Positions 17,279 to 42,294 of a stretch of 64,000 nt of DNA are shown here, piece after piece. This stretch comes from an uncultured Candidatus Saccharibacteria bacterium. Its GTDB lineage: Bacteria; Patescibacteriota; Minisyncoccia; UBA6257; Colwellbacteraceae. Within the stretch, counting starts at the first letter, position 1; each line of letters starts with the position of its first letter. The translations under genes were made by a program, and so were the position numbers. Under the pieces are notes generated by a model, which made no database searches, was not told the origin of the DNA, and was given only the letters and a program-made list of their open reading frames with translations. The DNA lies in assembly GCA_964643135.1 (NCBI GenBank), contig CAZXPC010000002.1, positions 73,049-137,048 of the forward strand, read 5' to 3'.

Positions 17279-17281
17279 GCG

Positions 17282-18268: not shown

Positions 18269-18270
18269 AA

Positions 18271-18744
18271 ATGAAGTTTCTGGCTTGGTTTTCGAAATAT
18301 CTCAAATATCTTTTAGTGTTCTTAATTGGCATAGCGATTGGCGGCTATCTTTTTTCGGGCGTTCAGCCGAGAACGTTTATCACGCCTAGCGGCTGTTTCG
18401 CCAAGTGCTTCTCTAAAAGCGAATTTTTAGGACTTTTGGCTTCAGTCGGTATACAGAGAACCGGAGGAACATTTTTCCCGATTGTTTTGGAAACCGATAA
18501 AACAATTGTGATCAATGACCCCGATAAATTGGCCACCGAAAAATATAATTTTATTATTATTCCCAAGAAAGACATTCATGACGCGGCCGACATTAGTGAA
18601 GAGGACCAGGCTTATCTAATAGACGCCTTTAATGTGATCCATAAGTTAGTTGCTCAATATCACTTAACTAGCTTTAAGGTTGTCTCGAACGGTCCAGGTT
18701 TTAGGAAGATGGCTTATCTCCACTTCCACCTGATCGCGCAGTAG
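18271..18744 (+). CDS. HIT-family (histidine triad) protein with an N-terminal TM anchor
   Basis: …NFIIIPKKDI… and C-terminal HFHLI (HxHxH-like triad). Confidence 0.5.
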   Translation: MKFLAWFSKYLKYLLVFLIGIAIGGYLFSGVQPRTFITPSGCFAKCFSKSEFLGLLASVGIQRTGGTFFPIVLETDKTIVINDPDKLATEKYNFIIIPKKDIHDAADISEEDQAYLIDAFNVIHKLVAQYHLTSFKVVSNGPGFRKMAYLHFHLIAQ

Positions 18745-19869: not shown

Positions 19870-19926
19870 CTATATATTGTACGCTTACCACGAAAATTGT
19901 AAATTATTAACTTATGTAAGAGAATT

Positions 19927-20538: not shown

Positions 20539-20661
20539 TGCTCGCAAATTTTTAACGATGGCGTTGTTGCGGAGCCTCTCAAATTCGTCGAAGTAGTATT
20601 TAAAGACTACATCTCCTCATTTGTTTCTCCGCGCCTAGCCCTGGTTCAAAATTTGCGAGCA
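20539..20661 (+). repeat. Structured intergenic element A, copy 1 (18-bp outer inverted repeat TGCTCGCAAATTTTTAAC/GTTCAAAATTTGCGAGCA around a conserved ~71-nt core)
   Basis: Core 20566..20636 GTTGCGGAGCCTCTCAAATTCGTCGAAGTAGTATTTAAAGACTACATCTCCTCATTTGTTTCTCCGCGCCT recurs at 42323..42392 with one indel. Internal hairpins GCGGAG/CTCCGC and GTAGT/ACTAC. Confidence 0.6.
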
Positions 20662-20692
20662 TTGGCTTGCGATAGTATTATGGGATAGACCA

Positions 20693-24953: not shown

Positions 24954-25024
24954 GCGAGTGTAGTACAGTGGCAGTACGCGACCTTCCCAAGGTTGAGACG
25001 AGGGTTCAATTCCCTTCACTCGCT
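24954..25024 (+). tRNA. tRNA-Gly(CCC)
   Basis: Acceptor GCGAGTG/CACTCGC. Anticodon stem CGACC/GGTTG with loop TTCCCAA. T-arm GAGGG-TTCAATT-CCCTT. Confidence 0.75.
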
Positions 25025-25027
25025 CCT

Positions 25028-25255
25028 CTATTTTTTTACCTCCTCCGGTGGGGTGGCCACTTCGGTCGGCACTACTACTTCAGCTTTTTTCTTCTTTTTA
25101 AGACCAGATACAAGCTTCTGGCCCAGTCCGCGGCCGATATGGAGATGTACCGCTTTTTCGATCAGGAGGCTTTTTTCAGATTGCTTAATCTCGGCTTCGG
25201 TGGCGGGTCTTTCGTTCAAGATTGCGTCGAAAAATTGTTGAGTGTTTTTGTCCAT
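25028..25255 (-). CDS. Small Lys-rich hypothetical protein, last gene of the minus-strand pil operon
   Basis: 75-aa ORF, but overlapped by ORFs on the opposite strand and adjacent to tRNA-Gly. Uncertain. Confidence 0.25.
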   Translation of the reverse strand: MDKNTQQFFDAILNERPATEAEIKQSEKSLLIEKAVHLHIGRGLGQKLVSGLKKKKKAEVVVPTEVATPPEEVKK

Positions 25256-25265
25256 AAAATCTAAG

Positions 25266-25484
25266 TTAGATTTTTATTGGTGTTAATCCCAAGCGCGGTG
25301 CGATTTTGTTGAAGGTAGCCAGGTCCAGCGCGGCGCCGGTGCTGTTCACTTTGGATTCGTCGACTTGAAAAGAATTATTAATGCGTTCGGCAAAAAATTT
25401 GCCGGAAGAAATAATAAGAAAGGTGATTACGACGCCTAGTACAATGATAATGCCGAGATATGTCAGGTTTTTGGTTTTAAACAT
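25266..25484 (-). CDS. Small single-TM protein in the pilM/N/O operon (PilP-like position)
   Basis: N-terminal TM (LTYLGIIIVLGVVITFLII). Confidence 0.35.
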   Translation of the reverse strand: MFKTKNLTYLGIIIVLGVVITFLIISSGKFFAERINNSFQVDESKVNSTGAALDLATFNKIAPRLGLTPIKI

Positions 25485-25488
25485 GGTT

Positions 25489-26058
25489 TTAAATGCTGAT
25501 TTGCTTTAAGTAAATTTTACCATGCAGATTTATCGTCGAGGCGCTGTCCCAGCCCTGAGGGCCGCCCCCGACAATGGAGATGCTATCGACAGCTGCGAAA
25601 TATTGGAATTTTTCCAAGGCTTTCAAAAATCGGACAAATTGGCTTTCGGTGCCGGTTAGAGTCAGGGAAATATCAATGGTCGAGAGCGTCGCGCCCGGCT
25701 CATTGATAGCGATATCGGTGGGCGTCAGAGACCCGAATGATTTGGTCATCGCAACGCCGTTTCCCGCCGCGAGCTTGTCTAGAGCCGCGCCGATTTCGAC
25801 GACGTTATCGGTCGTGGGGAACGCGTTTAAGACCGCGTTGTAATTTTTGTCTCCTAGCATGGCAAAGTCGGTTTGGAGAGAACCGACGGCTTCGACCCGC
25901 TTTTGCAGAATTGCGTTGGCGGTGTTTTTCTCATTCATTTTGTCGCTGATACTGGAGATCTTTCCGACAAAGAAGAAGACCAGCCCCAGGCAGATCAAAA
26001 CGGCGATGGCCGGCTTAAGCGTATATTTTCCCACTCGCGCGAGCAGTTCTTTATTCAT
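25489..26058 (-). CDS. pilO: PilO-like type IV pilus assembly protein
   Basis: N-terminal TM, a coiled coil and a periplasmic domain. Located directly downstream of pilM/N. Confidence 0.45.
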   Translation of the reverse strand: MNKELLARVGKYTLKPAIAVLICLGLVFFFVGKISSISDKMNEKNTANAILQKRVEAVGSLQTDFAMLGDKNYNAVLNAFPTTDNVVEIGAALDKLAAGNGVAMTKSFGSLTPTDIAINEPGATLSTIDISLTLTGTESQFVRFLKALEKFQYFAAVDSISIVGGGPQGWDSASTINLHGKIYLKQISI

Positions 26059-26072
26059 GTTACTTAATTATA

Positions 26073-27482
26073 TTATTTTGGGGTTAACATACTCGGATCT
26101 TTTAAAGTGATTGAGGCAGAGAAAGATATGTTGGTCGTTTTTTCGAGGTCGGTTGGGGGGATCGGAGCCACAGTCCACATAGTTGAAGTATCAAGAGATT
26201 TCTTAAAGTTAGCCAGCTGTATCCTGGTTACGGCCGAGCCGGATATGCTGATCGCGCTTTGCGTACCGGCCGCGCTGAAATTGTTAATCGTGATGCCCGG
26301 CGTTATTTTAGTGCGCAGTTCGTCGAAAAAGATGCTCCAGTTGGGCGACCGGTCGATCACTGCTTTAACGGCCGCAACCATGGTATTGAATTTAGCAACT
26401 TTCGGTTCCAAGTCCGACCCATTTTGAGGCAGGGGACTAGTTGAAGACGCGGTATGGATGGACCGAGATTGGAGTGAGAGCATCAGTATCCACACCAGAA
26501 CGAAAGCGATTGCGATCACGGCGCTGATTGCAGCGATGGCGTCAGAAATGAATTTGGCAAAGAGCGTGTCTTTTTGGATTTCATAAGCCACTTCAGTGCC
26601 GACCGAAGTTAAGCTGATCAAGTTGTCTTCCGCCCGCGGCAAGAGCCCGCGCAAGGCGGCGCCCAGCGCGATGAGCCAGCTTTTCGGGTCGCCCGCTAAT
26701 TTCGGGTCGCCGGCAAACTTTTTCGCCATGGGCAACTCAGAGAGGTCGACGAACTTCTTGATGCTCTCATCGCTCACTTCATAAAAATCAGAAATCTTTT
26801 TAATTTCGGCATCAAGATCGGCGTCGGTCATGAGCCGGTTAATCATGCGGGAGAATTTGAGAGACTTGCCCTTCATGACTATGAAGCCGCTGTAACTCTT
26901 GCCTTTGACGATTACTAGAGTGGTTAGCTTGTCATCCAGCGCGATGCCGCGAACGAGGCTCAAGATATGAGTCTCAACGATAAACGGATTGAGGCCCGCC
27001 TTTTCTATGCTCTTTAAAAACGGGTCGACGATATTCTTGGGGATTAGCGCCAAGTAAACTTCGTTATCTTTTTCGGACGGAATCGTTTCCCAGTCGAGGT
27101 AAACGTCTTCGATCTTGACTGGTAGGTTAAAGCCGGCTGTGACCTTCATGGCGTCATTTATTTTCCCGCCGGGCAGAGTTTTAGGGAAAGAGAATATTTT
27201 TGAGTAAGCATTGAGGTCGCTTAAAGAGACGACGACATTTTTAACATGCCACTTAGTTTTGCCGATGAGCGATTTAAGGGCCGTTATAAAAGCCTCTTCG
27301 TTCTTTAAGATGCCGCTTTCGACAACACCGGCCGGGAGAGGCTCTTCGACAGCTTCTTTCACAAAAGTTAATTTAGCCCCACGGGTTTTGCCCAGCAAAA
27401 CTAACCGCAGAAATTCATCGCTAACTTCAAGCCCGCCAATAGGTTCTTTATCTGACAGCGCTTCGACTAGATTCAGTTTCAT
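26073..27482 (-). CDS. pilM: PilM-PilN fusion (actin-like ATPase domain, TM, periplasmic PilN-like domain)
   Basis: N-terminal PilM-like fold (…GGLEVSDEFLRLVLL…), a central TM (AIAAISAVIAIAFVLVWILMLSL) and a ~140-aa C-terminal domain. Confidence 0.55.
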   Translation of the reverse strand: MKLNLVEALSDKEPIGGLEVSDEFLRLVLLGKTRGAKLTFVKEAVEEPLPAGVVESGILKNEEAFITALKSLIGKTKWHVKNVVVSLSDLNAYSKIFSFPKTLPGGKINDAMKVTAGFNLPVKIEDVYLDWETIPSEKDNEVYLALIPKNIVDPFLKSIEKAGLNPFIVETHILSLVRGIALDDKLTTLVIVKGKSYSGFIVMKGKSLKFSRMINRLMTDADLDAEIKKISDFYEVSDESIKKFVDLSELPMAKKFAGDPKLAGDPKSWLIALGAALRGLLPRAEDNLISLTSVGTEVAYEIQKDTLFAKFISDAIAAISAVIAIAFVLVWILMLSLQSRSIHTASSTSPLPQNGSDLEPKVAKFNTMVAAVKAVIDRSPNWSIFFDELRTKITPGITINNFSAAGTQSAISISGSAVTRIQLANFKKSLDTSTMWTVAPIPPTDLEKTTNISFSASITLKDPSMLTPK

Positions 27483-27556
27483 CTTATAGATTATACATTA
27501 AAGAGGCATTTGGTATATAATTTTAAGATATCCACAGGCGCCCGTATTGCCGAGTT

Positions 27557-27584
27557 TTGCATTGGATGGGCGATGTAGTATAAT
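27557..27584 (+). promoter_or_regulatory. Sigma-70-like promoter for the pilin gene (TTGCAT, 16 nt spacer, TATAAT)
   Basis: Near-consensus -35/-10 hexamers 28 nt upstream of the pilin start codon. Confidence 0.45.
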
Positions 27585-27611
27585 AACCAGAGTTAATAAA
27601 TTAGTAATAAA

Positions 27612-28361
27612 ATGAATATAAATAAAGTTGTGGATGGAAAGCGGGTCAAAGGTTTCACATTGTTGGAACTTTTAATCGTTATCACCATCATTGCCATTTT
27701 GTCGGTTGCCCTAATCGTCGTCATCAACCCAGCTGAAACGCTCAAGAAATCTAGAGACACACAGAGAATCTCCGACATGGCTGCTTTGAAGACTGCCATT
27801 GGTATCTACACCACGACCGTATCGAGCCCTCTGATGGACAATGGAAGCAACACCCTTTGCCAGCCGACCACTGCTGGTACTTGGGCTAACAACGACCAAG
27901 TTTGGTACGACCAGACAGGCATGAATGCCACTATCACTTTTGCCGGCGGAACCAACAACACTAATCCGTTGTATGTCGGCAGTACCACGACAACTACAGG
28001 CGGCAGCGGCTGGTTGCCGATTAACTTCAATGCTATTACCGGCGGCTCTCCGATCTCCAACTTGCCGTTAGACCCGAGCAATACCTTTGCACCCGGCTCT
28101 GCCCCGATAGGCAACACAAATTCCTCAGTAGACAGGCCTAATGCAAATGCCCTGGTTTATCGCTATGCTTGTTTCTCTACAACTTTATTGCAGTACGAAA
28201 TTGATGCCACACTAGAAAGTGCCGCCTATGGGAACTCTGCTACCGGCAGCGACAACAAAATGGCCAGTGATGGGGGCAACTCGACGATTCAATACGAAGT
28301 TGGTACAAACCTCAGCATCCTTGGAGCCAATACGACTAACAACGGTACGGCCGGGTTCTAG
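27612..28361 (+). CDS. pilA: Type IV major pilin (prepilin N-terminal cleavage/methylation domain)
   Basis: …KRVKG|FTLLELLIVITIIAILSVALIVV… with Gly at -1 and Glu at +5. C-terminal region is S/T/N/G-rich with at least 9 N-x-S/T sequons. Confidence 0.85.
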   Translation: MNINKVVDGKRVKGFTLLELLIVITIIAILSVALIVVINPAETLKKSRDTQRISDMAALKTAIGIYTTTVSSPLMDNGSNTLCQPTTAGTWANNDQVWYDQTGMNATITFAGGTNNTNPLYVGSTTTTTGGSGWLPINFNAITGGSPISNLPLDPSNTFAPGSAPIGNTNSSVDRPNANALVYRYACFSTTLLQYEIDATLESAAYGNSATGSDNKMASDGGNSTIQYEVGTNLSILGANTTNNGTAGF

Positions 28362-28382
28362 CACCTTTTCTTAGACAGAGAA

Positions 28383-28409
28383 AAACGCCCCGATGAGGGG
28401 CGTTTTTTA
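28383..28409 (+). terminator. Strong rho-independent terminator (AACGCCCC-GATG-AGGGGCGTT plus TTTTTT)
   Basis: 8-bp GC-rich stem, tetraloop and U-run directly after the pilin gene. Confidence 0.8.
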
Positions 28410-28469
28410 ATTGCTCTGGAGTTACTCCACTTTGTCTTGTAATATACGAATTGACCATTACATAAACAC

Positions 28470-30086
28470 ATGACCAGATTGCTGTTGATAATTTACTTGT
28501 CCGCTATTTTTTTTGCCGCTTTGTATCCAGTATTCGATATCGACCTGGGTTATGTCATGAGAACCGGACAATATGTAGTTCAGAATCTTCAGGTGCCCAC
28601 TCATGATATCTTCTCCTTTTCCGCCGCCGGCGCGCCTTGGATAGCTCACTATTGGTTCTCAGGGGTTATTTTTTATATTACTCAACTGTTTTTTGGAATA
28701 AATGGGTTAATTGTTCTAGTGGGGATTATTGCCGCGGCAACGTACTTCTTTGTTATCAAGAAGGTTGCGCTTCATTTTAAAGACAATATTACTTTCTTCT
28801 GGCTTATTTTTGTAATAGGTTCTTTCTATTTTGCCTGGAGCGTCAGGGCTCAAATTTTTACCAACCTATTTTTAGCCATAACTCTATTTTTGCTTGAGAG
28901 ATATGAAGTTGATCATAAGAAAATCAGCCTCTATCTGATTCCTCCGCTAGTCATTTTCTGGGCCAACATGCACGCGGGTGTCGCTGTTATTTTGCCGATC
29001 ATTGTTTTGTGGATTCTGAGTAAGGTGATCGAACACAAATTTAGCCTCCAAAATATAAAGACAGAAATATTGTTGGCGGTTTCGGTATTTGTGGCCACGG
29101 TTGTAAATCCTTGGGGTTACAAGCTTTTGATGTATCAATTTTATGTAGATAAATATAATACACAATTTGTTACGCTCCTGGGCTTTTCCAATTTCGCCAT
29201 TGTTAGAGCGCTGATTTTTCTAATGGTAGCTTTTTCGGCCTTCATTTTGTTCAGACAATTATCAAAGTTGATAAAAGGCAAGGCAGTAAACTTCTTTGAG
29301 ATTGGCCTCACCGTTTTTGCGTTAGCTATGCCCCTTATCTCTGTGAGGCATATGATAATGTTCCCGATTATAGTTTTCCCGATTTTTGTTAAAGAATGGC
29401 ATAACTTTACCAAAGAGGGCCATTTTAAAGTTGAAAACCCCGGCAGATTTAGTGTTTATCTTCTTGTTTTAGGCCTCGGATTTATAGTTTGGCCGCTTAT
29501 CAATATTAAATCTAGATTTAATATTGATGAGAGTCTGCTGCCGAATAAAGGGGTCGATTTTATCAAGACTGCCAATGTCCCTGGCCCGACTTTTAATACT
29601 ATCGAATACGGTGGTTGGCTGATTTGGAAGCTTTGGCCGGACCGAAAGGTATATATCGATGGTCGCAATGACGTCTATTATGGAGGCATGATGGACGAAT
29701 ATCGCTCGATTCTTGCCGAGGCTCCCGGGTGGGAACATGTTGTTAATGATAAATATAAATTCGAATCTTTCATTATGTTTTATCGATCGGACAACCGTCC
29801 TTTTCAGTCCCAGGTAGGAAAATTAAGTGGGGATCTTATAGATAAATTAGATTTCAAATTGGTTTATTGGGACGATGCATCGATTGTTCTGGTTCGCGAT
29901 ACTCCTGAGAATTCTGAAATAATAAAAAAATACGGTTATAACATAATAAGACCATTTAAAAATCCATCAGTATTTTCTAAAGGAGATAGAATAATAGCCT
30001 TGGCCGAAGTTGAGCGCGCTCTGCGGATATCGCCAGACTCAGCGGTCTTACGAGACTTCAAAAGATTAATTTTAGAAAATCAGTAA
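28470..30086 (+). CDS. GT-C-like polytopic membrane glycosyltransferase paralog 1 (about 11-12 TM plus C-terminal soluble domain)
   Basis: Family motifs DLGY…KTGQYVVQNLQVPTHDIFSFSAAGAPWIAHYWFSG, WANMHAGV, GGWLIWKLWPDRKVYIDGRNDVY, KYKF, LVYWDDASIVLVRDT, ISPDS. Confidence 0.55.
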   Translation: MTRLLLIIYLSAIFFAALYPVFDIDLGYVMRTGQYVVQNLQVPTHDIFSFSAAGAPWIAHYWFSGVIFYITQLFFGINGLIVLVGIIAAATYFFVIKKVALHFKDNITFFWLIFVIGSFYFAWSVRAQIFTNLFLAITLFLLERYEVDHKKISLYLIPPLVIFWANMHAGVAVILPIIVLWILSKVIEHKFSLQNIKTEILLAVSVFVATVVNPWGYKLLMYQFYVDKYNTQFVTLLGFSNFAIVRALIFLMVAFSAFILFRQLSKLIKGKAVNFFEIGLTVFALAMPLISVRHMIMFPIIVFPIFVKEWHNFTKEGHFKVENPGRFSVYLLVLGLGFIVWPLINIKSRFNIDESLLPNKGVDFIKTANVPGPTFNTIEYGGWLIWKLWPDRKVYIDGRNDVYYGGMMDEYRSILAEAPGWEHVVNDKYKFESFIMFYRSDNRPFQSQVGKLSGDLIDKLDFKLVYWDDASIVLVRDTPENSEIIKKYGYNIIRPFKNPSVFSKGDRIIALAEVERALRISPDSAVLRDFKRLILENQ

Positions 30087-30088
30087 AG

Positions 30089-31717
30089 ATGTTCAACTCT
30101 TTGATTATAGTTTACTTATTCGCCGTTTTTATTTATGTGTTGGCGCCAATCGATAATGTTGATATTGGTTATATTTTAAAGACCGGTCAATATGTAGTTC
30201 AGAATCTTCAGGTGCCCACTCATGATATCTTCTCCTTTTCCGCCGCCGGCGCGCCTTGGATAGCTCACTATTGGTTCTCAGGGGTTTTGATGTATCTCGT
30301 TGTCCACTTCTTGGGTTTTTATGCCTTGATAGCCACCACGGCTCTGATTGCTGCCTTGACGTATTGGCTGGTTGTGAAGAAGTTCCAGCTTTATTTTAAA
30401 GATCCGTCGTTGGCGCTTCTATTGATTTTTCCAACCAGCATCTTGATATTTGGTTTTTGGAGTCCAAGGGGACAAATTTTTACCAATCTCTTCACCGGTT
30501 TATTTTTGTTTTTAATCGAAAAATGGAGACTGCAGAAAACAAAGATTATTCCTTATGTCATACCGCCTCTTGTCGTGCTCTGGGCCAATTTACATGCCGG
30601 AGTGATACTTGGTCTCGCCATCCTTGGTTTGTGGATGGTTGTAAGTTTTATAGAAGCCAGATTTGATCTAACAAAAATAAAAACCCAAGTTATGGTTTTC
30701 TTTGTCTCATGTCTTGCTTCGCTTGTAAATCCTTGGGGCTATAAGCTTCTGACGATCCAATCGTATGTCTATAAAGATAATGCCGAATTCCAATCGATAT
30801 TCAATGCTCTCGATAATCCCACCTTTTCCCTATTTCTCATAACTATGATTTTATCGCTGGGGTTTATTATTTACAGAAAGGTTCTCTACTGCAGAAGAAA
30901 TAAAACGATAGACCTATGGAATTTCGGCATTATGCTTTCTGCGTTTCTCATGCCCATTTTCGCGATAAGGCATGTGGTCTTGGTTCCGTTATTTATTCTT
31001 CCCCTATTGGCCAAAGATCTGTGGGAATTTTGGATTGAAATACGTCCCCGATTTAACAAACGCAAGCTATATATCGCGACTTTGGCAATTGGTTTGATGT
31101 TAATTATTTTAAGGCTGCCTTTTATATTCGGTATGGAAAGCGTTAATAGCCATAATATGCCGGTCAGTGTGGCCAATTTTATTAGAGAGCAGGGCGTTGC
31201 CGGACCTTTGTTTAACTCAAGTGTTTCCGGAGGGTGGCTTATTTGGCAACTCTGGCCCGGACATAGGGCTTATTTTGATAGCCGGAATGATGTTTATTCC
31301 AGCCAGATCTATGATGAGTATCTTAATATATTAAAGAAGGGAGATGGGTGGCAGGAAATTGTTAATGAGAAATATAAATTTAACGCTTTTCTAATTAATT
31401 ATCGTCTTTCCAAATCCGTTTATGTGCAAAAAACGATAGGATCGCTGATTGATTCGCTAATCGATGATTTACATTTCAAGTTGGTTTATTGGGATGACGT
31501 CGCCGTCATCCTGGTACGAGATACGAAGGATACTCAGGAAGTCATCAATAAGTATGACTATCATCTGATTAGGCCTTTCCAAAACCCAAGCTATTTCATA
31601 TCTCCCAAAGACCGACTTGATGCGATCGCCGAGGTCGATAGAGCTCTTAGCGTGTCACCGGATTCGACGGTGTTGCAAGATCTAAGAAATAGACTTTTGA
31701 AGCTAAACGGGGAATAA
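30089..31717 (+). CDS. GT-C-like membrane glycosyltransferase paralog 2
   Basis: Same motif set as paralog 1. A ~100-nt stretch (30181-30290) is nucleotide-identical to 28561-28670. Confidence 0.55.
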   Translation: MFNSLIIVYLFAVFIYVLAPIDNVDIGYILKTGQYVVQNLQVPTHDIFSFSAAGAPWIAHYWFSGVLMYLVVHFLGFYALIATTALIAALTYWLVVKKFQLYFKDPSLALLLIFPTSILIFGFWSPRGQIFTNLFTGLFLFLIEKWRLQKTKIIPYVIPPLVVLWANLHAGVILGLAILGLWMVVSFIEARFDLTKIKTQVMVFFVSCLASLVNPWGYKLLTIQSYVYKDNAEFQSIFNALDNPTFSLFLITMILSLGFIIYRKVLYCRRNKTIDLWNFGIMLSAFLMPIFAIRHVVLVPLFILPLLAKDLWEFWIEIRPRFNKRKLYIATLAIGLMLIILRLPFIFGMESVNSHNMPVSVANFIREQGVAGPLFNSSVSGGWLIWQLWPGHRAYFDSRNDVYSSQIYDEYLNILKKGDGWQEIVNEKYKFNAFLINYRLSKSVYVQKTIGSLIDSLIDDLHFKLVYWDDVAVILVRDTKDTQEVINKYDYHLIRPFQNPSYFISPKDRLDAIAEVDRALSVSPDSTVLQDLRNRLLKLNGE

Positions 31718-31734
31718 TATACGGATATTTCAAA

Positions 31735-32358
31735 ATGGATAACAAGCACCTGGTCATGCCCGAAGATCATATGGATGAGCTCTATAACTCATCCAACCCT
31801 ATTGTTAAGTTTGTGCACCGCGCCAGATTGAAGGCTATTATGGACGTTATGCCCGAGACTAAAGGATTAAAAGTTCTGGACGCCGGCTGCGGGGAGGGGC
31901 ATTTAATTGAAATGCTCAATACTAAATTTCCGGAGAATAAATATTATGGAGCTGATGTGACCGAGGTGGCGCTTAAGCGCGCGCGCGGAAGGTGTCCGCT
32001 TGCCGATTTTAGACTCGAAGACTTAAGCGACTTGAAGTTTGAAGATAAATATTTCGATGTCGTTATTATTACCGAAGTCTTGGAACACATTTTTGATTAT
32101 AAGAAAGTTATTACAGAGCTGAAGAGAGTTCTTAAGAAGGGCGGTATTTTAATCATCACTTTTCCGAATGAATTTCTCTGGACGGCTGGCAGGTTTGTTC
32201 TTGGGATAAGGCCGCCAAAAGTTCCGGACCATGTTAACTCTTTTAGCCCAGCTCAAATAGAAAACCTTGCTGGGATGAGAGTCGTAGACCGGCGAGGGTT
32301 GCCTCTGCGTTGGCCTTTCTTGATATCCTTAGGCTATTTGATCAAGTTTAAGAAATAA
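31735..32358 (+). CDS. Class I SAM-dependent methyltransferase
   Basis: Motif I VLDAGCGEGHLIEML. Post-I acidic GADV. Motif III LKKGGILIITFP. Confidence 0.75.
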   Translation: MDNKHLVMPEDHMDELYNSSNPIVKFVHRARLKAIMDVMPETKGLKVLDAGCGEGHLIEMLNTKFPENKYYGADVTEVALKRARGRCPLADFRLEDLSDLKFEDKYFDVVIITEVLEHIFDYKKVITELKRVLKKGGILIITFPNEFLWTAGRFVLGIRPPKVPDHVNSFSPAQIENLAGMRVVDRRGLPLRWPFLISLGYLIKFKK

Positions 32359-34011
32359 ATGACTTCGGCCAATAAAAATATCTTCCTCACCGCAATCTTC
32401 CTTTGCGCAGTCTTCTTATTCACCTTTTTCGCGATTAACAACACCGACTTAGGCTTCATCCTTAAGACTGGCCAATATATTTGGGAGCATCATGAGATTC
32501 CTCACAATGATATCTTCTCTTTCTCCGCCCCGGGCGTAGATTGGATCGCCCACTATTGGCTAACTGGCGTGTTATTCTACGGCATCTTCCTGCTAGGAGG
32601 CTACCTGGGCCTTAAGATCAGTGTGGCCTTGGTGGCTGCGCTGACCTTCTTCTTTGTTATCAAAAGGTTTGGCCTCTACAGCAAGGATTATCCTTTGTTC
32701 TTAATTCTCTTCTATCCGCTGACTTTCTTCTCGTTTGAATTTTGGAATGTCCGAGGTGAGAACTTCTCGAATCTCTTTCTGGCTATACTCTTATACCTTA
32801 TTGATCAATGGAGATTCAAGAAATCAAAGTGGGCGCTCTATCTAATTCCTCTCTTATCCATGCTGTGGGCCAATATGCATGGGGGAGTGCTGTTGGGGTT
32901 GGCGATACTCGGTTTCTGGGCGGCCGTTAGCCTATATGAAGCACATTTTGCGTTGTCAAAGATCAAAATACAGGCTTCTGTTTTTGTCGCCGCCTGTTTG
33001 GCGTCCCTTCTCAACCCATTCGGTTACAAGTCGCCACTTCTTCTCTTCTTGCTGAACTCGAAGGGGATTAGTGAATTTGATTCGCTCTTTGCGTTTGTTT
33101 TTGGACATGCGCCAAATCTACTGAGATACATAGCCTTTGGCATTATGGTGTTCGCGGCTGGGTTTCTGATTTGGAGACAATATTCGTTATGGAAAAGAGG
33201 CCGCTCGTTTGGAAAATTATTTGATATTGGTCTTGTATCGGTGGCATTTTTAATGCCCTTGATGTCAATCAGGTACATGGTTTTTTTGCCTCTTATAGCC
33301 TTGCCTTTCGTAATTGGAGAATTAAGCAGTTTTCTCACGGAGAGATTCCCGAATCAAGATCGGGAGAATCTTTTTAAGGCCGCGGTTGGGGTCGGCCTAA
33401 TTTTAATAGTTCTCCGTTTGCCGTTTGTCTTGTCCGAGCCTGATGTTAATACTGCCGCTATTCCTGTCGCTGCAACTGATTTTATTAAGAACGCGAATGT
33501 TCCAGAGCCTCTATTCAATAATTTGGAGAATGGAGGTTGGTTGATCTGGAAACTTTGGCCCGAGAGGAAAGTTTTTATCGACGGCCGTTCGGATATATAT
33601 AAATATGGAGTCTACGATGATTATCTTGATATTCGTTCCATGTCGAACGGCTGGGTAAATTTAGTTAACGAGAAATACAAATTTAATTCTTTTCTTCTTA
33701 GCTACCGCCTTAGCAAGGAGACTGAGATCCCTGTGAGTAATTTGATGAATAAATTGAATGATCTAGGGTTTAGGCTTATTTATTGGGATGATAACTATAT
33801 TATTCTGGTACGCGATACGCCTGAAAATCAGCCAATAATTAAAAAATATGCTTATTATTTCATCAAACCATTCCAAAACTCGGCTTCACTGCCGCCGGAT
33901 AAGCTGCCGTTGGCGCTAGAAGAAGTGCGTCGAGCCCTTAGCATTTCTCCGGATTCTAAGATTCTGCAGAATTTAGAAAAAAGCATTTTGAATATAATTA
34001 ACCTGCAATGA
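32359..34011 (+). CDS. GT-C-like membrane glycosyltransferase paralog 3
   Basis: Same motif set (…TGQYIWEHHEIPHNDIFSFSAPGVDWIAHYW…, WANMHGGV, LIYWDDNYIILVRDT). Confidence 0.55.
   Translation: MTSANKNIFLTAIFLCAVFLFTFFAINNTDLGFILKTGQYIWEHHEIPHNDIFSFSAPGVDWIAHYWLTGVLFYGIFLLGGYLGLKISVALVAALTFFFVIKRFGLYSKDYPLFLILFYPLTFFSFEFWNVRGENFSNLFLAILLYLIDQWRFKKSKWALYLIPLLSMLWANMHGGVLLGLAILGFWAAVSLYEAHFALSKIKIQASVFVAACLASLLNPFGYKSPLLLFLLNSKGISEFDSLFAFVFGHAPNLLRYIAFGIMVFAAGFLIWRQYSLWKRGRSFGKLFDIGLVSVAFLMPLMSIRYMVFLPLIALPFVIGELSSFLTERFPNQDRENLFKAAVGVGLILIVLRLPFVLSEPDVNTAAIPVAATDFIKNANVPEPLFNNLENGGWLIWKLWPERKVFIDGRSDIYKYGVYDDYLDIRSMSNGWVNLVNEKYKFNSFLLSYRLSKETEIPVSNLMNKLNDLGFRLIYWDDNYIILVRDTPENQPIIKKYAYYFIKPFQNSASLPPDKLPLALEEVRRALSISPDSKILQNLEKSILNIINLQ
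32386..33075 (+). repeat. Direct repeat (5' half of GT-C paralog 3), ~625 bp perfect then slightly diverged; partner at 34095-34784
   Basis: Nucleotide identity between the two gene 5' halves. Downstream segments alternate between diverged and near-identical. Confidence 0.85.
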
Positions 34012-34064
34012 TTGTTTTTGGTTACTTACTCTGTGTTACACTTATTTAATTAGAAATTATCCTA

Positions 34065-35720
34065 ATGACGTCTGTAAGCAAAAACGCTCTACTCACCGCA
34101 ATCTTCCTTTGCGCAGTCTTCTTATTCACCTTTTTCGCGATTAACAACACCGACTTAGGCTTCATCCTTAAGACTGGCCAATATATTTGGGAGCATCATG
34201 AGATTCCTCACAATGATATCTTCTCTTTCTCCGCCCCGGGCGTAGATTGGATCGCCCACTATTGGCTAACTGGCGTGTTATTCTACGGCATCTTCCTGCT
34301 AGGAGGCTACCTGGGCCTTAAGATCAGTGTGGCCTTGGTGGCTGCGCTGACCTTCTTCTTTGTTATCAAAAGGTTTGGCCTCTACAGCAAGGATTATCCT
34401 TTGTTCTTAATTCTCTTCTATCCGCTGACTTTCTTCTCGTTTGAATTTTGGAATGTCCGAGGTGAGAACTTCTCGAATCTCTTTCTGGCTATACTCTTAT
34501 ACCTTATTGATCAATGGAGATTCAAGAAATCAAAGTGGGCGCTCTATCTAATTCCTCTCTTATCCATGCTGTGGGCCAATATGCATGGGGGAGTGCTGTT
34601 GGGGTTGGCGATACTCGGTTTCTGGGCGGCCGTTAGCCTATATGAAGCACATTTTGCGTTGTCAAAGATCAAAATACAGGCTTCTGTTTTTGTCGCCGCC
34701 TGTTTGGCGTCCCTTCTGAACCCATTCGGTTACAAGTCGCCCCTGCTTCTATTTCTGCTGAACTCGAAGGGGATTAGTGAATTCCAGTCCATACTTGCTG
34801 ACTTTATATCCGAACCGGACATGATGCGAAATGTCGCTCTCGGCGCTATGGTCTTGACCACTGTTTTCCTGATGTGGAGGCAGTATTCGTCGAGAAAGAA
34901 TGATCGCCGGCCCGGCAGGCTATACGAGACCGGCCTGGTACTTGTGGCATTTATTATGCCCATGGTGTCGGTTCGCTATACAGTTTTTTTCCCGCTCATA
35001 ACTTTGCCTTTGATGATCAAGGAGTTAAGCATTTTCCTCAAGGAAAAATTCCCAGAGCAGGACGCGGGGAGTCTTTGGAAGGCGGCGCTCGGTGTTGGGT
35101 TTATTATGATCGCCGGCCGTTTGCCATTCGTTATATCGCAGCCCGATATTAATACTGAGGCGATCGCGGTTGGCGCGACTGACTTTGTTAAGAACGCGAA
35201 TGTTCCAGAGCCCTTATTTAATGGTCTGGGGAACGGCGGCTGGCTCATTTGGAAACTTTGGCCCGAGAGGAAAGTTTTTATCGACGGGCGTTCCGACATA
35301 TACAAATATGGAGTGTACGATGACTACCTTACTATCGAGTCGCAGTCTGACGGCTGGATAAATTTAGTTAATGAGAAATATAAATTTAATTCCTTCTTGG
35401 TTCCTTATCGTTCGAGCCAGGCGACTGCCATAGCCATGAGCCATTTAATAGATCAGCTGACCAATGACTTGGGGTTTAAACTTATATACTGGGATAACGA
35501 TTATATTATTCTGGCGCGCGATACGCCGGAGAATCAGGAAATTATTAAAAAATATGCCTATTCTGTTATAGGGCCCTTTAAGAACCCAGCTTCTATACCT
35601 AAAGATAAGCGGAAGTTAGCCCTGGAAGAGATTCGGCGCGCCCTCTCTATTTCTCCGGATTCCAAGGTTCTAAAAGATTGGGAAAGCAACATGGCTTTCT
35701 TAGCCAATCTCAGCAAATAA
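34065..35720 (+). CDS. GT-C-like membrane glycosyltransferase paralog 4 (N-terminal ~238 aa identical to paralog 3)
   Basis: Same motifs. Nucleotides ~34095-34784 are a near-perfect direct repeat of ~32386-33075. Confidence 0.55.
   Translation: MTSVSKNALLTAIFLCAVFLFTFFAINNTDLGFILKTGQYIWEHHEIPHNDIFSFSAPGVDWIAHYWLTGVLFYGIFLLGGYLGLKISVALVAALTFFFVIKRFGLYSKDYPLFLILFYPLTFFSFEFWNVRGENFSNLFLAILLYLIDQWRFKKSKWALYLIPLLSMLWANMHGGVLLGLAILGFWAAVSLYEAHFALSKIKIQASVFVAACLASLLNPFGYKSPLLLFLLNSKGISEFQSILADFISEPDMMRNVALGAMVLTTVFLMWRQYSSRKNDRRPGRLYETGLVLVAFIMPMVSVRYTVFFPLITLPLMIKELSIFLKEKFPEQDAGSLWKAALGVGFIMIAGRLPFVISQPDINTEAIAVGATDFVKNANVPEPLFNGLGNGGWLIWKLWPERKVFIDGRSDIYKYGVYDDYLTIESQSDGWINLVNEKYKFNSFLVPYRSSQATAIAMSHLIDQLTNDLGFKLIYWDNDYIILARDTPENQEIIKKYAYSVIGPFKNPASIPKDKRKLALEEIRRALSISPDSKVLKDWESNMAFLANLSK
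34095..34784 (+). repeat. Direct repeat (5' half of GT-C paralog 4); partner at 32386-33075
   Basis: See the partner entry. Confidence 0.85.
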
Positions 35721-35724
35721 GGCC

Positions 35725-36441
35725 TTAAAAGGAGAGACTGTATTTTTTGTTTAAATCGTTGGACTTGATTTTGCCTAACGCTGTCAGCATCGAGAATGGG
35801 TGTAAAAAGAAGTTTACTTTGGAATTATCGCTATTATTAAAAACGACCGGCACGGCCTTTATTTTGTAATTGTTTCTTACTGCAATTAGCAATATTTCTA
35901 CGTCATATGCGAAGCCGGTAATGGTTTGCTTGCTAAATATTTTTAACGCGGCCGTTCGTTTGAATAACTTGAAGCCGCATTGGGTGTCGTTAAAATTAGG
36001 AAGAAGGAGCAATCTTACAATTAAGTTAAATGTTTTGCCGCTCAAGGTGCGGTGCAGGGGATTGGTGTCGGATGAACCTCCATTCCGGTCGCCGATTACG
36101 AGGTCGAATTCAGGAATGCATTTTATAAACTCGGTTAGTGACTCAATCGGCGTTGAGAGGTCGGCGTCGCAGGTCAGAACTAGGTCTTTCGAGGCCTCTA
36201 TGACACCACGTTTCACAGCGTTGCCTTTGCCCGATCTTTGTCCGCTGTTTAATATGGGCCTTATTTTTTGATTCTTGAAGTCAACAATAATTTTTAATGT
36301 TCCCTCCGCGTCGCCATCGATTACAACCAATATTTCGTAATCGAAATTATTCTTTTCCAGATACTCAATGATCGATTCAAGGGTTTTCTTGATGCGTTGC
36401 TCTTCTTTATAGCTGGGTATGACGATAGATAGACCGATCAT
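35725..36441 (-). CDS. GT2-family polyprenyl-phosphate sugar synthase (Dpm1/GtrB/ArnC-like)
   Basis: LSIVIPSYKEEQRI…EILVVIDGDAEGT…DADLSTP… GT-A fold with DxD. Confidence 0.8.
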   Translation of the reverse strand: MIGLSIVIPSYKEEQRIKKTLESIIEYLEKNNFDYEILVVIDGDAEGTLKIIVDFKNQKIRPILNSGQRSGKGNAVKRGVIEASKDLVLTCDADLSTPIESLTEFIKCIPEFDLVIGDRNGGSSDTNPLHRTLSGKTFNLIVRLLLLPNFNDTQCGFKLFKRTAALKIFSKQTITGFAYDVEILLIAVRNNYKIKAVPVVFNNSDNSKVNFFLHPFSMLTALGKIKSNDLNKKYSLSF

Positions 36442-38116: not shown

Positions 38117-38794
38117 ATGATTAATTTTCTGCTTTATGTGGTCATCTGGCTGCCGATTATATTTTACTGGGCGGTTTTTGTAGCGGCGCTATTGCTATAT
38201 GCTTTTAGGCATCACGAGAAAGCGGCGATTAAGTCGAAATTTTTGAACTACAGGGTGATTATCATCGGGACGATCGTTTTCCGGTTCCTCTATGCGCTCT
38301 TGGAATCGGTTGCGCAATATTACGTTTGGACGACCAGCGATCTGACCAGGAGTTTGCTGAACAGCCCCCTTAGCGACAAGGTGCCGCCGGAGGGTTTTAT
38401 TGTGCAGGCTTTCCCATCGCTCTTTAAGACTGGGGCGGGATACTTCTTGTATTATGCTTACGGCCGGTTTTTTCTAAACGCCATACTCGTCGTTATCTGC
38501 GCTTTTATTTTCTACTTTATTCTAAAAGCTCTACAGAAATACCAGGATCGGTTCTTTGATACGGGCGAGACTGAATTGGGCTTTTTGTGCTGCCTCATCG
38601 TCGGCTGGCCGGCCTTTGTGGTTTTTGTGCCGCTCGCTTTTGTGGCGGTTGTCATTGTCTCTGTTTTCCGCGGTATTTTCTTCAGGGAACTTTATACCAC
38701 GCTGGGCTATCCGTTCCTTTTGGCCGCGCTGATGTGCCTGATACTCGGGGAAAACTTGATTACGATGTTCAATCTCCTGGTCTTGAAAGTGTAG
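38117..38794 (+). CDS. Integral membrane protein (~6 TM), hypothetical
   Basis: Hydrophobic. Weak similarity to the prepilin-peptidase GGGDVKL region that lacks the catalytic Asp, so not called as PilD. Confidence 0.35.
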   Translation: MINFLLYVVIWLPIIFYWAVFVAALLLYAFRHHEKAAIKSKFLNYRVIIIGTIVFRFLYALLESVAQYYVWTTSDLTRSLLNSPLSDKVPPEGFIVQAFPSLFKTGAGYFLYYAYGRFFLNAILVVICAFIFYFILKALQKYQDRFFDTGETELGFLCCLIVGWPAFVVFVPLAFVAVVIVSVFRGIFFRELYTTLGYPFLLAALMCLILGENLITMFNLLVLKV

Positions 38795-38832: not shown

Positions 38833-39195
38833 TTGGAAATCTTTAGATTTAAAAATTGGAAAGTTTATAAGGAATCCAAGGATTTGTTTAAACTTCTACT
38901 CAAGATATCTGATAAATTGCCTAAGGATTATAAATATTCTATTGGTTCGCAGGTTTTAAGGTCGGGGCTGTCGATCATCCTAAACATTGCAGAAGGTAGC
39001 GGCAAAGATTCTGATAAAGAATTAAATCGATATTTCAACATATCCATAGGTTCAATAAATGAGACTTTGGCATTTACTGATACATTGACCGATTTAGGCT
39101 TGATAACGGCAACTGAGTTCCAGAATGTATATAAATTATGTGAGAGCATCTCTCGGCAGTTGGGTGGTTTTAAGAGAAGGCTTAAAGAAGAATAG
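38833..39195 (+). CDS. Four-helix-bundle protein (TIGR02436, 23S rRNA intervening-sequence protein family); TTG start
   Basis: …LSIILNIAEGSGKDSDKELNRYFNISIGSINETLAF… The family signature NIAEG…S.E is present. Confidence 0.7.
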   Translation: MEIFRFKNWKVYKESKDLFKLLLKISDKLPKDYKYSIGSQVLRSGLSIILNIAEGSGKDSDKELNRYFNISIGSINETLAFTDTLTDLGLITATEFQNVYKLCESISRQLGGFKRRLKEE

Positions 39196-39254: not shown

Positions 39255-40967
39255 ATGCACTTAACTCCCGATAAACTTAAAATTTTACTGCGAGAATCCG
39301 GCGTGGTTGACGAGGATGCTTTTGATACGGCGGTTAAAGAAGCTGAGCAGACCGGCCGCTCGGTGGAAGAAATTTTAATTGCCCGCGGCGATGTGCCGGA
39401 ACACTACCTAACCGAGCTCTTAGCTAAATATTTTAATGTTCCGGTTGTGAATCTCGACTCGGTTGTGATTCCCAAAGAAGTAATCGAGCTTATTCCCGAG
39501 AGCTACGCTCAGCTTAAGAAGCTAGCCATCTTCGATTACAAAAAGGGGGAGTACGCCAAGGTCGCCATGCTGGACCCGCTCGACTACGACGCGATCGAAT
39601 ATTTGAAAACTAAGCTGGGTGTGGCGATCCAGCCCTCTCTTACGACCGGTTCCAGCCTGAGCAATGCTTTGAAGCAGTACAAGGAGCAAATCGGGAATGA
39701 ATTTAGCAAGATCATCCGCGAGAACGTGGAAAAATCGGTTACTCAAACCGGAGAAACCGACCTGGCCAAAATGGCGGCCGCCGTGCCGGTGGTGGCCATT
39801 CTAAAAAGTATTATCGAATACGCTATTTCTTTAAATGCGTCGGACATTCACTTTGAGCCGTTTTTCCAGAATTTGGTTATCAGGTACCGCGTCGACGGCG
39901 TTTTGCGCGAGGCTTTCGATTTGCCCAAACAAGTCGAGCCGACCATTGTGGCGCGCGTTAAAATTTTGGCCAACTTGCAGATCGACGAGCACCGCCTGCC
40001 GCAGGACGGCCGATTCAAATTTAATGTGACGGAAAAAGAAACGATTGATGTGCGTGTCAACATTATCCCGGTGCTTTACGGCGAAAAGGCGGAAATGAGG
40101 CTGTTGCGGAGCAGTTCGCGGCCGATTATGCTGGAAGACATCGGCTTCTCTAAAGAGGCGGTTGAAAAGGTGAACGACGAGATTCGGAAACCGCACGGTA
40201 TGATTTTGGTTACCGGTCCGACCGGTTCCGGTAAAACGACGACTCTTTACGCGATTTTGAGTATTTTGAATACGCCCAAGGTTAACATTACGACCATTGA
40301 AGACCCGATCGAGTACGAAGTTTCGGGCATCAACCAGATTCAGGTCAACACGAAAGCGGGCGTAACTTTTGCGTCGGGGCTGCGCGCTATTTTGAGGCAG
40401 GACCCGAACGTGATCATGATTGGTGAAATTCGCGACAACGAAACGGTTGAGATCGGCATTCAGGCGGCCTTGACCGGACACTTGGTTTTGTCGAGCTTGC
40501 ACACCAACGACGCGCCGTCGGCTCTGCCGAGGCTCTTGGACATGGGGGCGCCGGCGTTTTTGCTTGCTTCAACCGTTAACCTCTCAATCGCGCAGAGGCT
40601 GGTTCGTAAAATTTGCACTTCCTGCATCGAATCATACGTGCCTTCGGAAGAGTCCCGGCGGCTCGCTTTGGCGCAGTTTGAATTGGCCGGGCACAAGATT
40701 GACAAAGAGGCTATTCCTAAAAATCTATACCGCGGCAAGGGCTGTAATGTCTGCACCAATACCGGCTACCGCGGCCAGATCGCTATTTTTGAACTTATGA
40801 AAATGAGCGATGCGATCAGGGCTATGGTTTTGAAGATGGCCCCGTCGGGAGAGATCAGAGAACAGGCGATCAAAGAAGGTATGACGACGATTTTTGAGGA
40901 CGGCCTCGATAAAGCGAAAAAGGGGATCACCACGCTCGATGAGGTCCTGCGCGTGATACAAGAATAA
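39255..40967 (+). CDS. pilB: Type IV pilus assembly ATPase PilB (GspE family)
   Basis: N-terminal GSPII_E_N-like domain. Walker A GPTGSGKTTTLYA. Asp box, His box. Tetracysteine CTSC…CNVC. Confidence 0.9.
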   Translation: MHLTPDKLKILLRESGVVDEDAFDTAVKEAEQTGRSVEEILIARGDVPEHYLTELLAKYFNVPVVNLDSVVIPKEVIELIPESYAQLKKLAIFDYKKGEYAKVAMLDPLDYDAIEYLKTKLGVAIQPSLTTGSSLSNALKQYKEQIGNEFSKIIRENVEKSVTQTGETDLAKMAAAVPVVAILKSIIEYAISLNASDIHFEPFFQNLVIRYRVDGVLREAFDLPKQVEPTIVARVKILANLQIDEHRLPQDGRFKFNVTEKETIDVRVNIIPVLYGEKAEMRLLRSSSRPIMLEDIGFSKEAVEKVNDEIRKPHGMILVTGPTGSGKTTTLYAILSILNTPKVNITTIEDPIEYEVSGINQIQVNTKAGVTFASGLRAILRQDPNVIMIGEIRDNETVEIGIQAALTGHLVLSSLHTNDAPSALPRLLDMGAPAFLLASTVNLSIAQRLVRKICTSCIESYVPSEESRRLALAQFELAGHKIDKEAIPKNLYRGKGCNVCTNTGYRGQIAIFELMKMSDAIRAMVLKMAPSGEIREQAIKEGMTTIFEDGLDKAKKGITTLDEVLRVIQE

Positions 40968-41067: not shown

Positions 41068-42294
41068 ATGTTATTCACTTACGAAGCTTTTAATCGGAAT
41101 GGCGCTATTGTTACGGGTGAAGTCGACGCCGAAGATGAGAGAGGCGTAGTTTTATATCTCGAAACCAAAGACTTAATTCCGTCGAAGATCCGGCCCAAAG
41201 GCGAGAAGGGCGGTATATTAGATTTAAAATTTCTGCAGAAAATCAGGCTCTTTGAAAGAGTTAAGACGACCGACATTATCTTCTTGGTCCGGAACTTGGC
41301 GACTGCGATCAAGGCCGGCCTTAGCATTTCCGAGGCGCTTGAAATATTGATCAATGACTCCAAGCCGGGAACTTTGCGGTATGTTTTAATCAGCGCCAAG
41401 GCCACTGTTCAAGCCGGGCGGCCGCTTTCAGACGCTTTTGAGCAATATAAGAAAATATTCCCGTCGGTTTTTATCGGCCTCATTAAAGCCGGCGAGGTTT
41501 CGAGCCGTTTGGATAAGGCGCTCGAGGAACTCTCGAACCATTTGGTGAAGGAATATAACTTGGTGCGCAAAATCCGGTCGGCCATGGTTTATCCGGCTCT
41601 GCTTTTAGTGGCCACGATCGGCGTAACTGTTTTTTTGCTGACGGTTGTTTTGCCGAAGCTCACTAAAGCCTTCCAGCAGAGCAACGCTTCACTGCCGCTC
41701 ATCACGAAAATCCTTCTCGCGACCGGCACCTTTATGGCGCATAATTTTATTATTCTCTCGATTATCACGACAGCTCTGATCGGCGGATTTATCTATATGG
41801 CCAGCACCGAAAGGGGCAAGCTTTATATCGAAAAAATATTATTGAAGATTCCCGTTGTGAACGAGCTGATGAAGCGGGTCGACCTGGTGCGTTTTACCCG
41901 GACGCTGGGCAGTTTGCTCGCGAGCGCGATGCCGGTTTTAGACGCTTTGCAGATTTCAGCCGATGCGATCGGCAGCTATACCTACCGCGCGGCGCTGAAA
42001 GACGTGATCGATAAGGTTAAGTCCGGCGTGCCGCTCTCGAAGAGCCTGCAGTTCCACAAAGACCTTTTCCCGACGCTTTTGACGAGCCTGATTTCGGTGG
42101 GCGAGCGGACGGGCAACCTCGAATATGTGCTCACGACTTTTTCGGATTTCTACGATGAAGAAGTCGACAACAAGCTGAAAGACCTGACAACGCTTTTCGA
42201 ACCGATTATGCTCCTGGTGATGGGTGTTATCGTGGGCGGCGTCGCGCTTTCGATACTCTTGCCGATCTACAGCCTGGTCAGCCAGTTCACCTAA
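41068..42294 (+). CDS. pilC: Type IV pilus platform protein PilC (GspF family)
   Basis: Two GspF repeats. 3 TM. …ISEALEIL… and …GERTGNLEYVL…. Confidence 0.85.
   Translation: MLFTYEAFNRNGAIVTGEVDAEDERGVVLYLETKDLIPSKIRPKGEKGGILDLKFLQKIRLFERVKTTDIIFLVRNLATAIKAGLSISEALEILINDSKPGTLRYVLISAKATVQAGRPLSDAFEQYKKIFPSVFIGLIKAGEVSSRLDKALEELSNHLVKEYNLVRKIRSAMVYPALLLVATIGVTVFLLTVVLPKLTKAFQQSNASLPLITKILLATGTFMAHNFIILSIITTALIGGFIYMASTERGKLYIEKILLKIPVVNELMKRVDLVRFTRTLGSLLASAMPVLDALQISADAIGSYTYRAALKDVIDKVKSGVPLSKSLQFHKDLFPTLLTSLISVGERTGNLEYVLTTFSDFYDEEVDNKLKDLTTLFEPIMLLVMGVIVGGVALSILLPIYSLVSQFT

Follow-up and report, generated by a model that had tools for sequence, protein, structure and literature searches.

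How can two adjacent genes be identical to the letter over a long internal stretch and yet be strongly diverged on both sides of it? This question is raised by a stretch of 64,000 nucleotides (nt) from an uncultured Candidatus Saccharibacteria bacterium (GenBank assembly GCA_964643135.1, contig CAZXPC010000002.1, positions 73,049 to 137,048), here called the window, in which all coordinates are given. The window contains five paralogous open reading frames (ORFs) of about 540 amino acids (aa) each, P1 to P4 on the plus strand and P5 on the minus strand, whose products are predicted to be membrane glycosyltransferases of the GT-C fold. An original prediction, made from the DNA letters, had proposed gene conversion or segmental recombination between the paralogs. 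A contrast in synonymous divergence, diverged flanks and a permutation test support that proposal. We conclude, with a probability of roughly 0.85, that P3 and P4, two old tandem paralogs, underwent internal, non-reciprocal ectopic gene conversion.

P1, 28470-30086, plus strand: ORF of 538 aa, paralog with predicted GT-C fold
P2, 30089-31717, plus strand: ORF of 542 aa, paralog with predicted GT-C fold
P3, 32359-34011, plus strand: ORF of 550 aa, paralog with predicted GT-C fold (AlphaFold model and Foldseek)
P4, 34065-35720, plus strand: paralog with predicted GT-C fold, 551 aa, 80% amino-acid identity to P3 overall
P5, 36438-38045, minus strand: older fifth paralog with predicted GT-C fold, 535 aa, 35-37% identity to P1-P4

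Comparison of the nucleotide sequences of P3 and P4 revealed an exact run of 626 nt, in which 32386-33011 matches 34092-34717 at an offset of 1706. A perfect identity of about 625 base pairs (bp) had been reported for this pair and is confirmed, with the second copy starting at 34092 and not at 34095, a difference of 3 nt. The segments of the pair, with the transmembrane (TM) helices they encode, are as follows.

32386-33011, plus strand: conversion tract, P3 copy, probably the recipient; codons 10-218, TM1-TM7 plus external loop 1
34092-34717, plus strand: conversion tract, P4 copy, probably the donor; exact match to the P3 copy
33012-33077, plus strand: transition zone in P3, pairing with 34718-34783 in P4; codons 218-240, NPxGYK motif and start of the post-TM7 loop

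On the left flank the first 27 nt of P3 and P4 match at 15 positions (56%), and the DNA further 5' is unrelated. On the right, exact runs of 23 and 28 nt come directly after the 626-nt run. Past 33077 the similarity falls sharply and a 3-nt indel moves the offset to 1703. Nucleotide identity is 54-69% across aa 241-375, rises to 79-87% across aa 376-425 and is 63-80% thereafter.

The synonymous sites give the clearest contrast. Using the Nei-Gojobori method we counted one synonymous difference in 142 sites and no nonsynonymous difference across codons 10-218, giving a proportion of synonymous differences (pS) of 0.007 and a nonsynonymous divergence (dN) of 0. The sole difference lies in codon 218, leaving codons 10-217 without any. 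Across codons 241-550 the counts were 146.5 of 204 synonymous and 145.5 of 723 nonsynonymous sites, with pS saturated at 0.72, a synonymous divergence (dS) above 2 and a dN of 0.23. Pairwise alignment had been suggested as a check on the mosaic, and divergence along P3 and P4 is indeed not uniform. We also applied a GENECONV-style permutation test, confined to codons encoding the same amino acid, to all ten paralog pairs. P3 and P4 share 198 consecutive identical codons (p<5e-5) and P1 and P2 share 32 (p<5e-5). The remaining eight pairs have no significant identical-codon run (p>0.07).

The transition zone is intermediate. It contains six differences in 66 nt, all of them synonymous, so that protein identity runs on to aa 240; counted over codons 219-240, there are six synonymous and no nonsynonymous differences (pS 0.38, dN 0). 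Against the diverged background, the probability of at most 6 of 16 synonymous sites differing is 0.004, and that of no nonsynonymous difference is 1e-5. The zone could be either the remnant of an older, longer tract or the product of patchy mismatch repair at the tract end. The identity originally placed at aa ~10-238 thus holds for the protein, and the exact nucleotide run ends at codon 218.

The significant run in P1 and P2 corresponds to an exact match of 99 nt, which the original prediction had described as a patch of about 100 nt with coordinates right to within a few bases. The best reading of this tract is a second, independent conversion event.

28569-28667, plus strand: short conversion tract in P1, exact 99 nt, external loop 1 catalytic motif
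30188-30286, plus strand: short conversion tract in P2, exact 99 nt

In which direction was the long segment copied? The GC content at third codon positions (GC3) is 0.593 in the tract; outside it, P4 has 0.547 and P3 has 0.423. In none of P1, P2 and P5 do the 5' and 3' parts lie more than 0.055 apart. Because the tract resembles the remainder of P4 in GC3 and departs widely from that of P3, the segment was probably copied from P4 as donor into P3 as recipient.

A further region of similarity lies at aa 376-425, where the original prediction had seen the two sequences converge again. The proteins are near-identical here, as described, yet pS remains at 0.5-0.65, and the region holds the residues G392, G393, D408 and R410, which are invariant across the family. 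Since pS stays high and these residues are invariant family-wide, we attribute the similarity to purifying selection. Conversion in this segment, which contains exact runs of 25 and 38 nt, was rejected, the longest identical-codon run being non-significant (p=0.087). The longer of the two exact runs is listed below.

33547-33584, plus strand: exact run of 38 nt shared with 35250-35287, inside the conserved GGWLIWKLWPERKVFIDGR region

Are these repeats present in the sequencing data themselves? Independent assemblies were available as Logan per-run contigs (k=31) from runs SRR8931233 and SRR8931234, in both of which the source organism is present. The Logan contigs are 100% identical to the window and their ends fall exactly 30 nt (k-1) inside the exact repeats, as the ends of true two-context repeats should.

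L168, covering 24976-28598: marks the P1 tract start at 28569
L167, covering 28638-30217: marks the P1 tract end at 28667 and the P2 tract start at 30188
L084, covering 30257-32415: marks the P2 tract end at 30286 and the P3 tract start at 32386
L085 and L086, ending at 35258: mark a break at the 38-nt repeat, 35250-35287

Breaks of this kind mark the 626-nt repeat on its left side and the 99-nt repeat at both ends of both copies. Where L167 and L168 should end had been predicted before they were retrieved, and the prediction held. Because a k-mer with two contexts yields such break points, the repeats very probably exist in the raw data. To find a contig joining the end of P3 to the beginning of P4, its predicted partial products (151 and 342 aa) were looked up, and these matched nothing.

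To relate the tract to the architecture of the protein we modelled P3 with AlphaFold from an alignment of 76 sequences; the model has a predicted local distance difference test score (pLDDT) of 94.7 and a predicted template modelling score (pTM) of 0.93. All Foldseek hits of this model in the Protein Data Bank (PDB) at E<=0.001 are GT-C enzymes, namely STT3, PglB, AglB, ALG9, ALG12 and ArnT, with TM-scores of 0.39-0.60. The weaker hits, down to rank 29, are GT-C enzymes or related endoplasmic reticulum membrane complexes, including AftA/B, Emb, Pmt1/2 and a chain of the GPI transamidase complex. At the sequence level, no Pfam or NCBIfam glycosyltransferase model matched the five paralogs or the 76 family members, some of which carry TPR repeats. 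A phmmer search of PDB sequences gave no match, and a PDB profile search returned spurious bacteriorhodopsin hits only. As for the WWDxG motif of the oligosaccharyltransferases, WWD occurs in none of the five paralogs and P1-P3 have only YWDD. The GT-C label of the original prediction therefore stands for the fold and not for the sequence family. On the basis of the model we assign P1-P5 to the GT-C fold, class GT-CA, with predicted catalytic activity.

Enzymes of class GT-CA begin with a conserved seven-TM module, in which the catalytic base lies, and continue with a variable module responsible for most acceptor contacts; in ALG9 and ALG12 the variable part consists of four TM helices plus a C-terminal domain (PMC13503287). 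The P3 model follows the same predicted plan. It has seven TM helices (residues 2-21, 67-107, 111-128, 134-154, 157-173, 177-194 and 199-216), then two short loop helices, four further TM helices (254-359) and a soluble alpha/beta domain (360-550). An external-loop helix (30-44) begins at D30, which is invariant in the 76 homologues, and D51 is nearly invariant. The likeness to ALG9 and ALG12 extends to the loop helix at D30 and to Foldseek E values of 3e-4 to 7e-4, although no characterised GT-C family could be linked to P1-P5 by sequence similarity. In the model the tract (codons 10-218, or to 240) equals the conserved GT-CA module almost exactly. The strongly diverged block at aa 241-375 had been described as periplasmic; its divergence is borne out, but the model places it mostly in TM8-TM11, the membrane-embedded variable module, and not in the periplasm. 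The C-terminal soluble domain is better conserved than this block, and across the variable module and C-terminal domain together P3 and P4 differ by about 30%.

What surrounds the paralogs? The array is embedded in a type IV pilus locus, and the rest of the window contains housekeeping genes, including SecA, S2, TrmD, LepA, RF, GroEL and FtsEX. Its neighbours are as follows.

26073-27482: PilM-like gene of the pilus locus
27612-28361, plus strand: prepilin gene directly 5' of the array (Pfam N_methyl; G/FTLLE class III signal)
31735-32358, plus strand: S-adenosylmethionine-dependent methyltransferase in the P2/P3 interval (Pfam Methyltransf_31/11/25)
35725-36441, minus strand: GT2 glycosyltransferase of polyprenyl-phosphate-sugar synthase type (Pfam Glycos_transf_2, E 2e-23)
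39255-40967: PilB ATPase of the pilus locus
41068-42294: PilC of the pilus locus, with more pilin-like ORFs downstream

The methyltransferase stop codon directly abuts the P3 start codon, and the GT2 gene overlaps the end of P5. The best NCBIfam similarities of the GT2 protein are to PgfS, dolichyl-phosphate hexose transferase, AglJ, ArnC and PpgS, all under the cut-off. From gene context, that is the adjacent GT2 and a pairing that is kept in the related locus L169, we infer a polyprenyl-phosphate-linked sugar as the donor substrate. In the mature part of the prepilin, Ser and Thr together make up 23% of the residues and Asn 10%. It contains eight N-x-S/T sequons and a TTTTT run, and by gene context the prepilin is a plausible candidate for the glycosylation acceptor.

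Base composition changes along the window. Between 28000 and 38000 the GC content is 41-44% with a strongly negative AT skew, against 47-53% GC in the flanks, and GC3 is about 0.40-0.45 in P1, P2 and the native part of P3 against about 0.55-0.59 in P4. Within P1, in its most variable part, we observed a perfect 30-nt palindrome (29499-29528) with the halves ATCAATATTAAATCT and AGATTTAATATTGAT. It occurs once in the window and in none of 100 shuffles, and the independent contig L167 contains it too. Downstream of PilC, where GC is raised to 52-55% compared with the 41-44% of the GT-C array, lies a giant ORF of 2871 aa (42423-51038). Its N-terminus resembles the pilin N-terminal methylation segment, and it may be a pilin-like adhesin. 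Upstream, 16391-22801 holds a glycan-synthesis cluster with a UbiA-family prenyltransferase, a HIT/DcpS_C-like protein, a GT4, a Bac_transf initiating sugar transferase and a DUF4012 protein. By analogy with mycobacterial arabinan synthesis one might speculate that the UbiA enzyme leads to a polyprenyl-phosphate pentose donor.

The history of the array can be read from its relatives. The nearest homologues are encoded in metagenome-assembled genomes of Patescibacteria (the candidate phyla radiation) at 30-38% identity, and profile scans of GTDB genomes and metagenomes gave relatives at <=38% identity only. In a tree of the unconverted part, P1-P4 form a clade with the topology (P1,(P2,(P3,P4))), and P5 groups with the external homologue P0008. 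The locus L169 keeps the core of the arrangement, with a gene for an intervening-protein (IVP)-like product, a 225-aa membrane protein, a P5 orthologue with its GT2, a methyltransferase and one GT-C gene, which is equidistant from P1-P4. Because of the clade topology and this single equidistant gene, P1-P4 represent a lineage-specific tandem expansion. Between P5 and PilB the window encodes a multi-pass membrane protein of 225 aa that matches no family (38117-38794) and a four-helix protein resembling 23S-rRNA-IVP/bAvd (38833-39195), both syntenic with the P5-GT2 pair in L169 (133-1220). The membrane protein is the most conserved gene of the set, at 63% identity in L169, and may be the flippase-like component that is otherwise missing.

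Few of some 160 related loci have tandem pairs, and only one, L134, has a short identical patch between its paralogs. In this distant, GC-rich relative an exact 50-nt patch (9609-9658 and 11363-11412) covers the same DFYWHLKTGELIAQTG loop motif in tandem paralogs of 55% amino-acid identity. It may be another short conversion or may reflect codon bias on a conserved motif. The family of the paralogs (homologues P0004-P0120), for which neither Pfam nor NCBIfam has a model, is widespread: of the 8000 candidates scored, 295 were hits at E<=1e-3. C-terminal TPR repeats, as in TMTC-type enzymes, are found in many of its members from Acidobacteriota, Omnitrophota and Nitrospirota. The two convergent GT-C 'paralogs' of L098 (ERZ1292640 contig, 5730 nt) are a palindromic assembly artefact, because that contig is its own reverse complement throughout. 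In L001, the locus of the closest external homologue P0004, an RVT_1 reverse transcriptase gene follows a 165-aa ORF (273-1731). This may be a retron or an element of the diversity-generating retroelement (DGR) type, unrelated to the window.

Could the identity of P3 and P4 have arisen in some other way? Repeat collapse or mis-resolution, strain chimerism, or polishing that homogenised two sequences could have created it in the assembly. The contig is of metagenomic origin, the exact P3 and P4 proteins were found on one NCBI contig only while a scan of JGI metagenomes for close relatives gave nothing, and the expected contig holding the P3 3' end and the P4 start is missing from the Logan look-up. 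Set against this are the break points in two independent per-run assemblies, together with a unique 53-nt spacer and P4's own diverged first nine codons (34012-34091), which are beyond an assembler's invention. The background identity of about 65% is also too low for read cross-mapping and mis-polishing, and we consider an artefact very unlikely. The alternative offered in the original prediction, a recent duplication followed by accelerated divergence, here of the 3' two-thirds, fares worse. It would suit the adjacency and shared orientation of P3 and P4, which are each other's closest paralogs throughout. Saturated synonymous sites adjoin a block free of differences, however, and for that reason a recent duplication of the whole gene with fast protein evolution is impossible, since positive selection on the protein cannot cause a pS of 0.72. 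This refutes the alternative as it was put forward. The tract is moreover internal, preceded by nine codons that are homologous but no more alike than 56% and by unrelated upstream DNA. An unequal crossover or partial tandem duplication with an intragenic junction would leave an identical intergenic region or a 3' half identical to that of a neighbour, and neither is seen. The spacer and 3' halves are not common to neighbours, and unequal crossover, like unit shuffling of the lpl type described below, was rejected. Taken together, we regard this group of explanations as scarcely credible.

Gene conversion between P3 and P4 remains the preferred reading, and several points weigh against it or limit its reach. 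In the independent assemblies retrieved, neither the P3-P4 junction nor the point where the 626-nt repeat ends on the right is present, and the independent evidence on the copies consists of assembled contigs. Base composition is the sole basis for calling P4 the donor. No relative above 45% identity was found in 5.8 billion proteins, GTDB representative genomes or JGI metagenomes, and the nearest non-self homologue is only 40% identical. One recent event and one short tract fall short of proving an ongoing process, and the coincidence of tract end and module boundary may reflect the collapse of nucleotide homology and the 3-nt indel just downstream. The original prediction had suggested that ongoing conversion keeps the core while specificity diversifies; this fits the module boundary, and a purely mechanical explanation is also available. 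A stronger form would be a selected, recurrent modular system, in which repeated conversion keeps the catalytic modules of the array alike and the variable modules become different, and copy-number switching, through P3/P4 fusion or amplification via the 626-bp direct repeat, varies the pilus or surface glycan. Two independent tracts within the conserved module, an intermediate zone at codons 219-240 that suggests more than one event, and a tract that stops at the boundary between conserved and variable modules would all agree with such a system, as would the location of the array, surrounded by a type IV pilus locus and next to a pilin rich in Ser, Thr and Asn, and the identical patch at the same motif in the tandem pair of L134. 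There is, however, no deletion or fusion variant in evidence, no site-specific recombinase or reverse transcriptase among the window ORFs scanned, and most relatives are single-copy or have unconverted pairs. Conserved motifs are also natural start points for recombination, so that a position bias is expected without selection. We judge such a system quite unlikely. About as unlikely is that the five-gene array serves an episymbiotic, Patescibacteria-like cell as a modular locus for glycan diversification. Recurrent conversion would there maintain a catalytic and donor module common to the paralogs as their acceptor-binding variable modules diverge, and reversible P3/P4 fusion or amplification through the 626-bp direct repeat would produce heterogeneous pilus or envelope glycosylation within a population. 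Programmed diversification by a DGR, shufflon or invertible cassette was rejected: the window ORFs scanned contain no reverse transcriptase or recombinase domain, and the repeats are direct and exact. The 23S-rRNA-IVP/bAvd-like protein has no reverse transcriptase partner.

Under gene conversion, the sequence of events was probably as follows. An old, lineage-specific tandem expansion of an uncharacterised membrane glycosyltransferase of the GT-C fold gave rise to P1-P4, and P3 and P4 first diverged to synonymous saturation. Very recently, homologous recombination between direct copies on the same chromosome or on sister chromosomes, presumably by RecA-type machinery, formed a heteroduplex. 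On its repair, part of the interior of one gene was replaced by that of the other, with no transfer in the opposite direction. Conserved motifs could have supplied the short identical stretches from which the exchange started. The converted segment is at least 626 nt long (codons 10-218) and may nest in an older or patchily repaired tract reaching codon 240. The resulting P3 would be a chimera that combines the seven-helix catalytic and donor-binding module of P4 with its own TM8-TM11 variable module and its own C-terminal soluble domain. A separate, shorter event of 99 nt homogenised the catalytic-loop motif of P1 and P2. Functionally, P3 and P4 would then share the same donor chemistry, possibly using polyprenyl-phosphate sugar from the adjacent GT2, and differ in their acceptor modules.

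Ectopic gene conversion and concerted evolution are familiar from tufA/tufB, the rRNA operons, babA/babB of Helicobacter and the PE/PPE genes of Mycobacterium. The P3/P4 event is like known bacterial conversions in its internal tract of perfect identity, its diverged homologous flanks, its non-reciprocal transfer and its typical length (about 0.1-0.7 kilobases). It is unlike them in concerning membrane glycosyltransferases of the GT-C fold in a Patescibacteria-like genome, and in that only part of the gene, coinciding with a structural module, was homogenised. A prokaryote-wide survey of conversion between paralogs has been published (PMC6053082). The lpl cluster of S. aureus (Tsuru and Kobayashi 2008, PMC2568036) offers a close parallel, with tandem surface-related paralogs, recombination at a conserved intragenic sequence and 5'/3' mosaics. 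There the mobile unit comprises a 3' region, the intergenic spacer and the next 5' region, exchanged by crossover at a central conserved block (PMC2568036). In our locus, by contrast, the spacer and the first nine codons are not common to P3 and P4, which indicates internal conversion and not a unit shuffle. Gene conversion among bacterial paralogs is already well documented (PMC6053082, PMC2568036), and the present case is a new, tidy but ordinary example.

The locus also recalls known glycosylation systems, in gene context only. TfpW of Pseudomonas aeruginosa is a GT-C enzyme whose gene lies beside a pilin gene (bioRxiv 10.1101/2020.04.19.049825), and in the GT2/flippase/GT-C systems (Gtr; CsbB-GtcA-YfhO, PMC5836110) a GT-C gene stands beside a GT2 of polyprenyl-phosphate-sugar synthase type. 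Unlike these, our array has five paralogs rather than one, and no GtrA-like flippase was recognised.

What does the conversion mean for this family and its host? It is a clean and statistically unambiguous case of conversion confined to part of a gene, and it comes from a lineage that has not been cultivated. The converted block matches the conserved catalytic module of the predicted GT-C architecture, so that P3 would be a natural domain-swap chimera of a P4 catalytic module and a P3 variable module. Such a chimera would lend itself well to testing whether the variable modules of GT-CA enzymes determine acceptor specificity. The event has left a 626-bp direct repeat on which RecA-dependent recombination can act to delete or amplify the 1706-bp unit. 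The acceptor and donor of the paralogs are putative, as is any adaptive role. Five copies of an unannotated GT-C family within a type IV pilus locus represent a candidate pilin or envelope glycosylation system in Patescibacteria.

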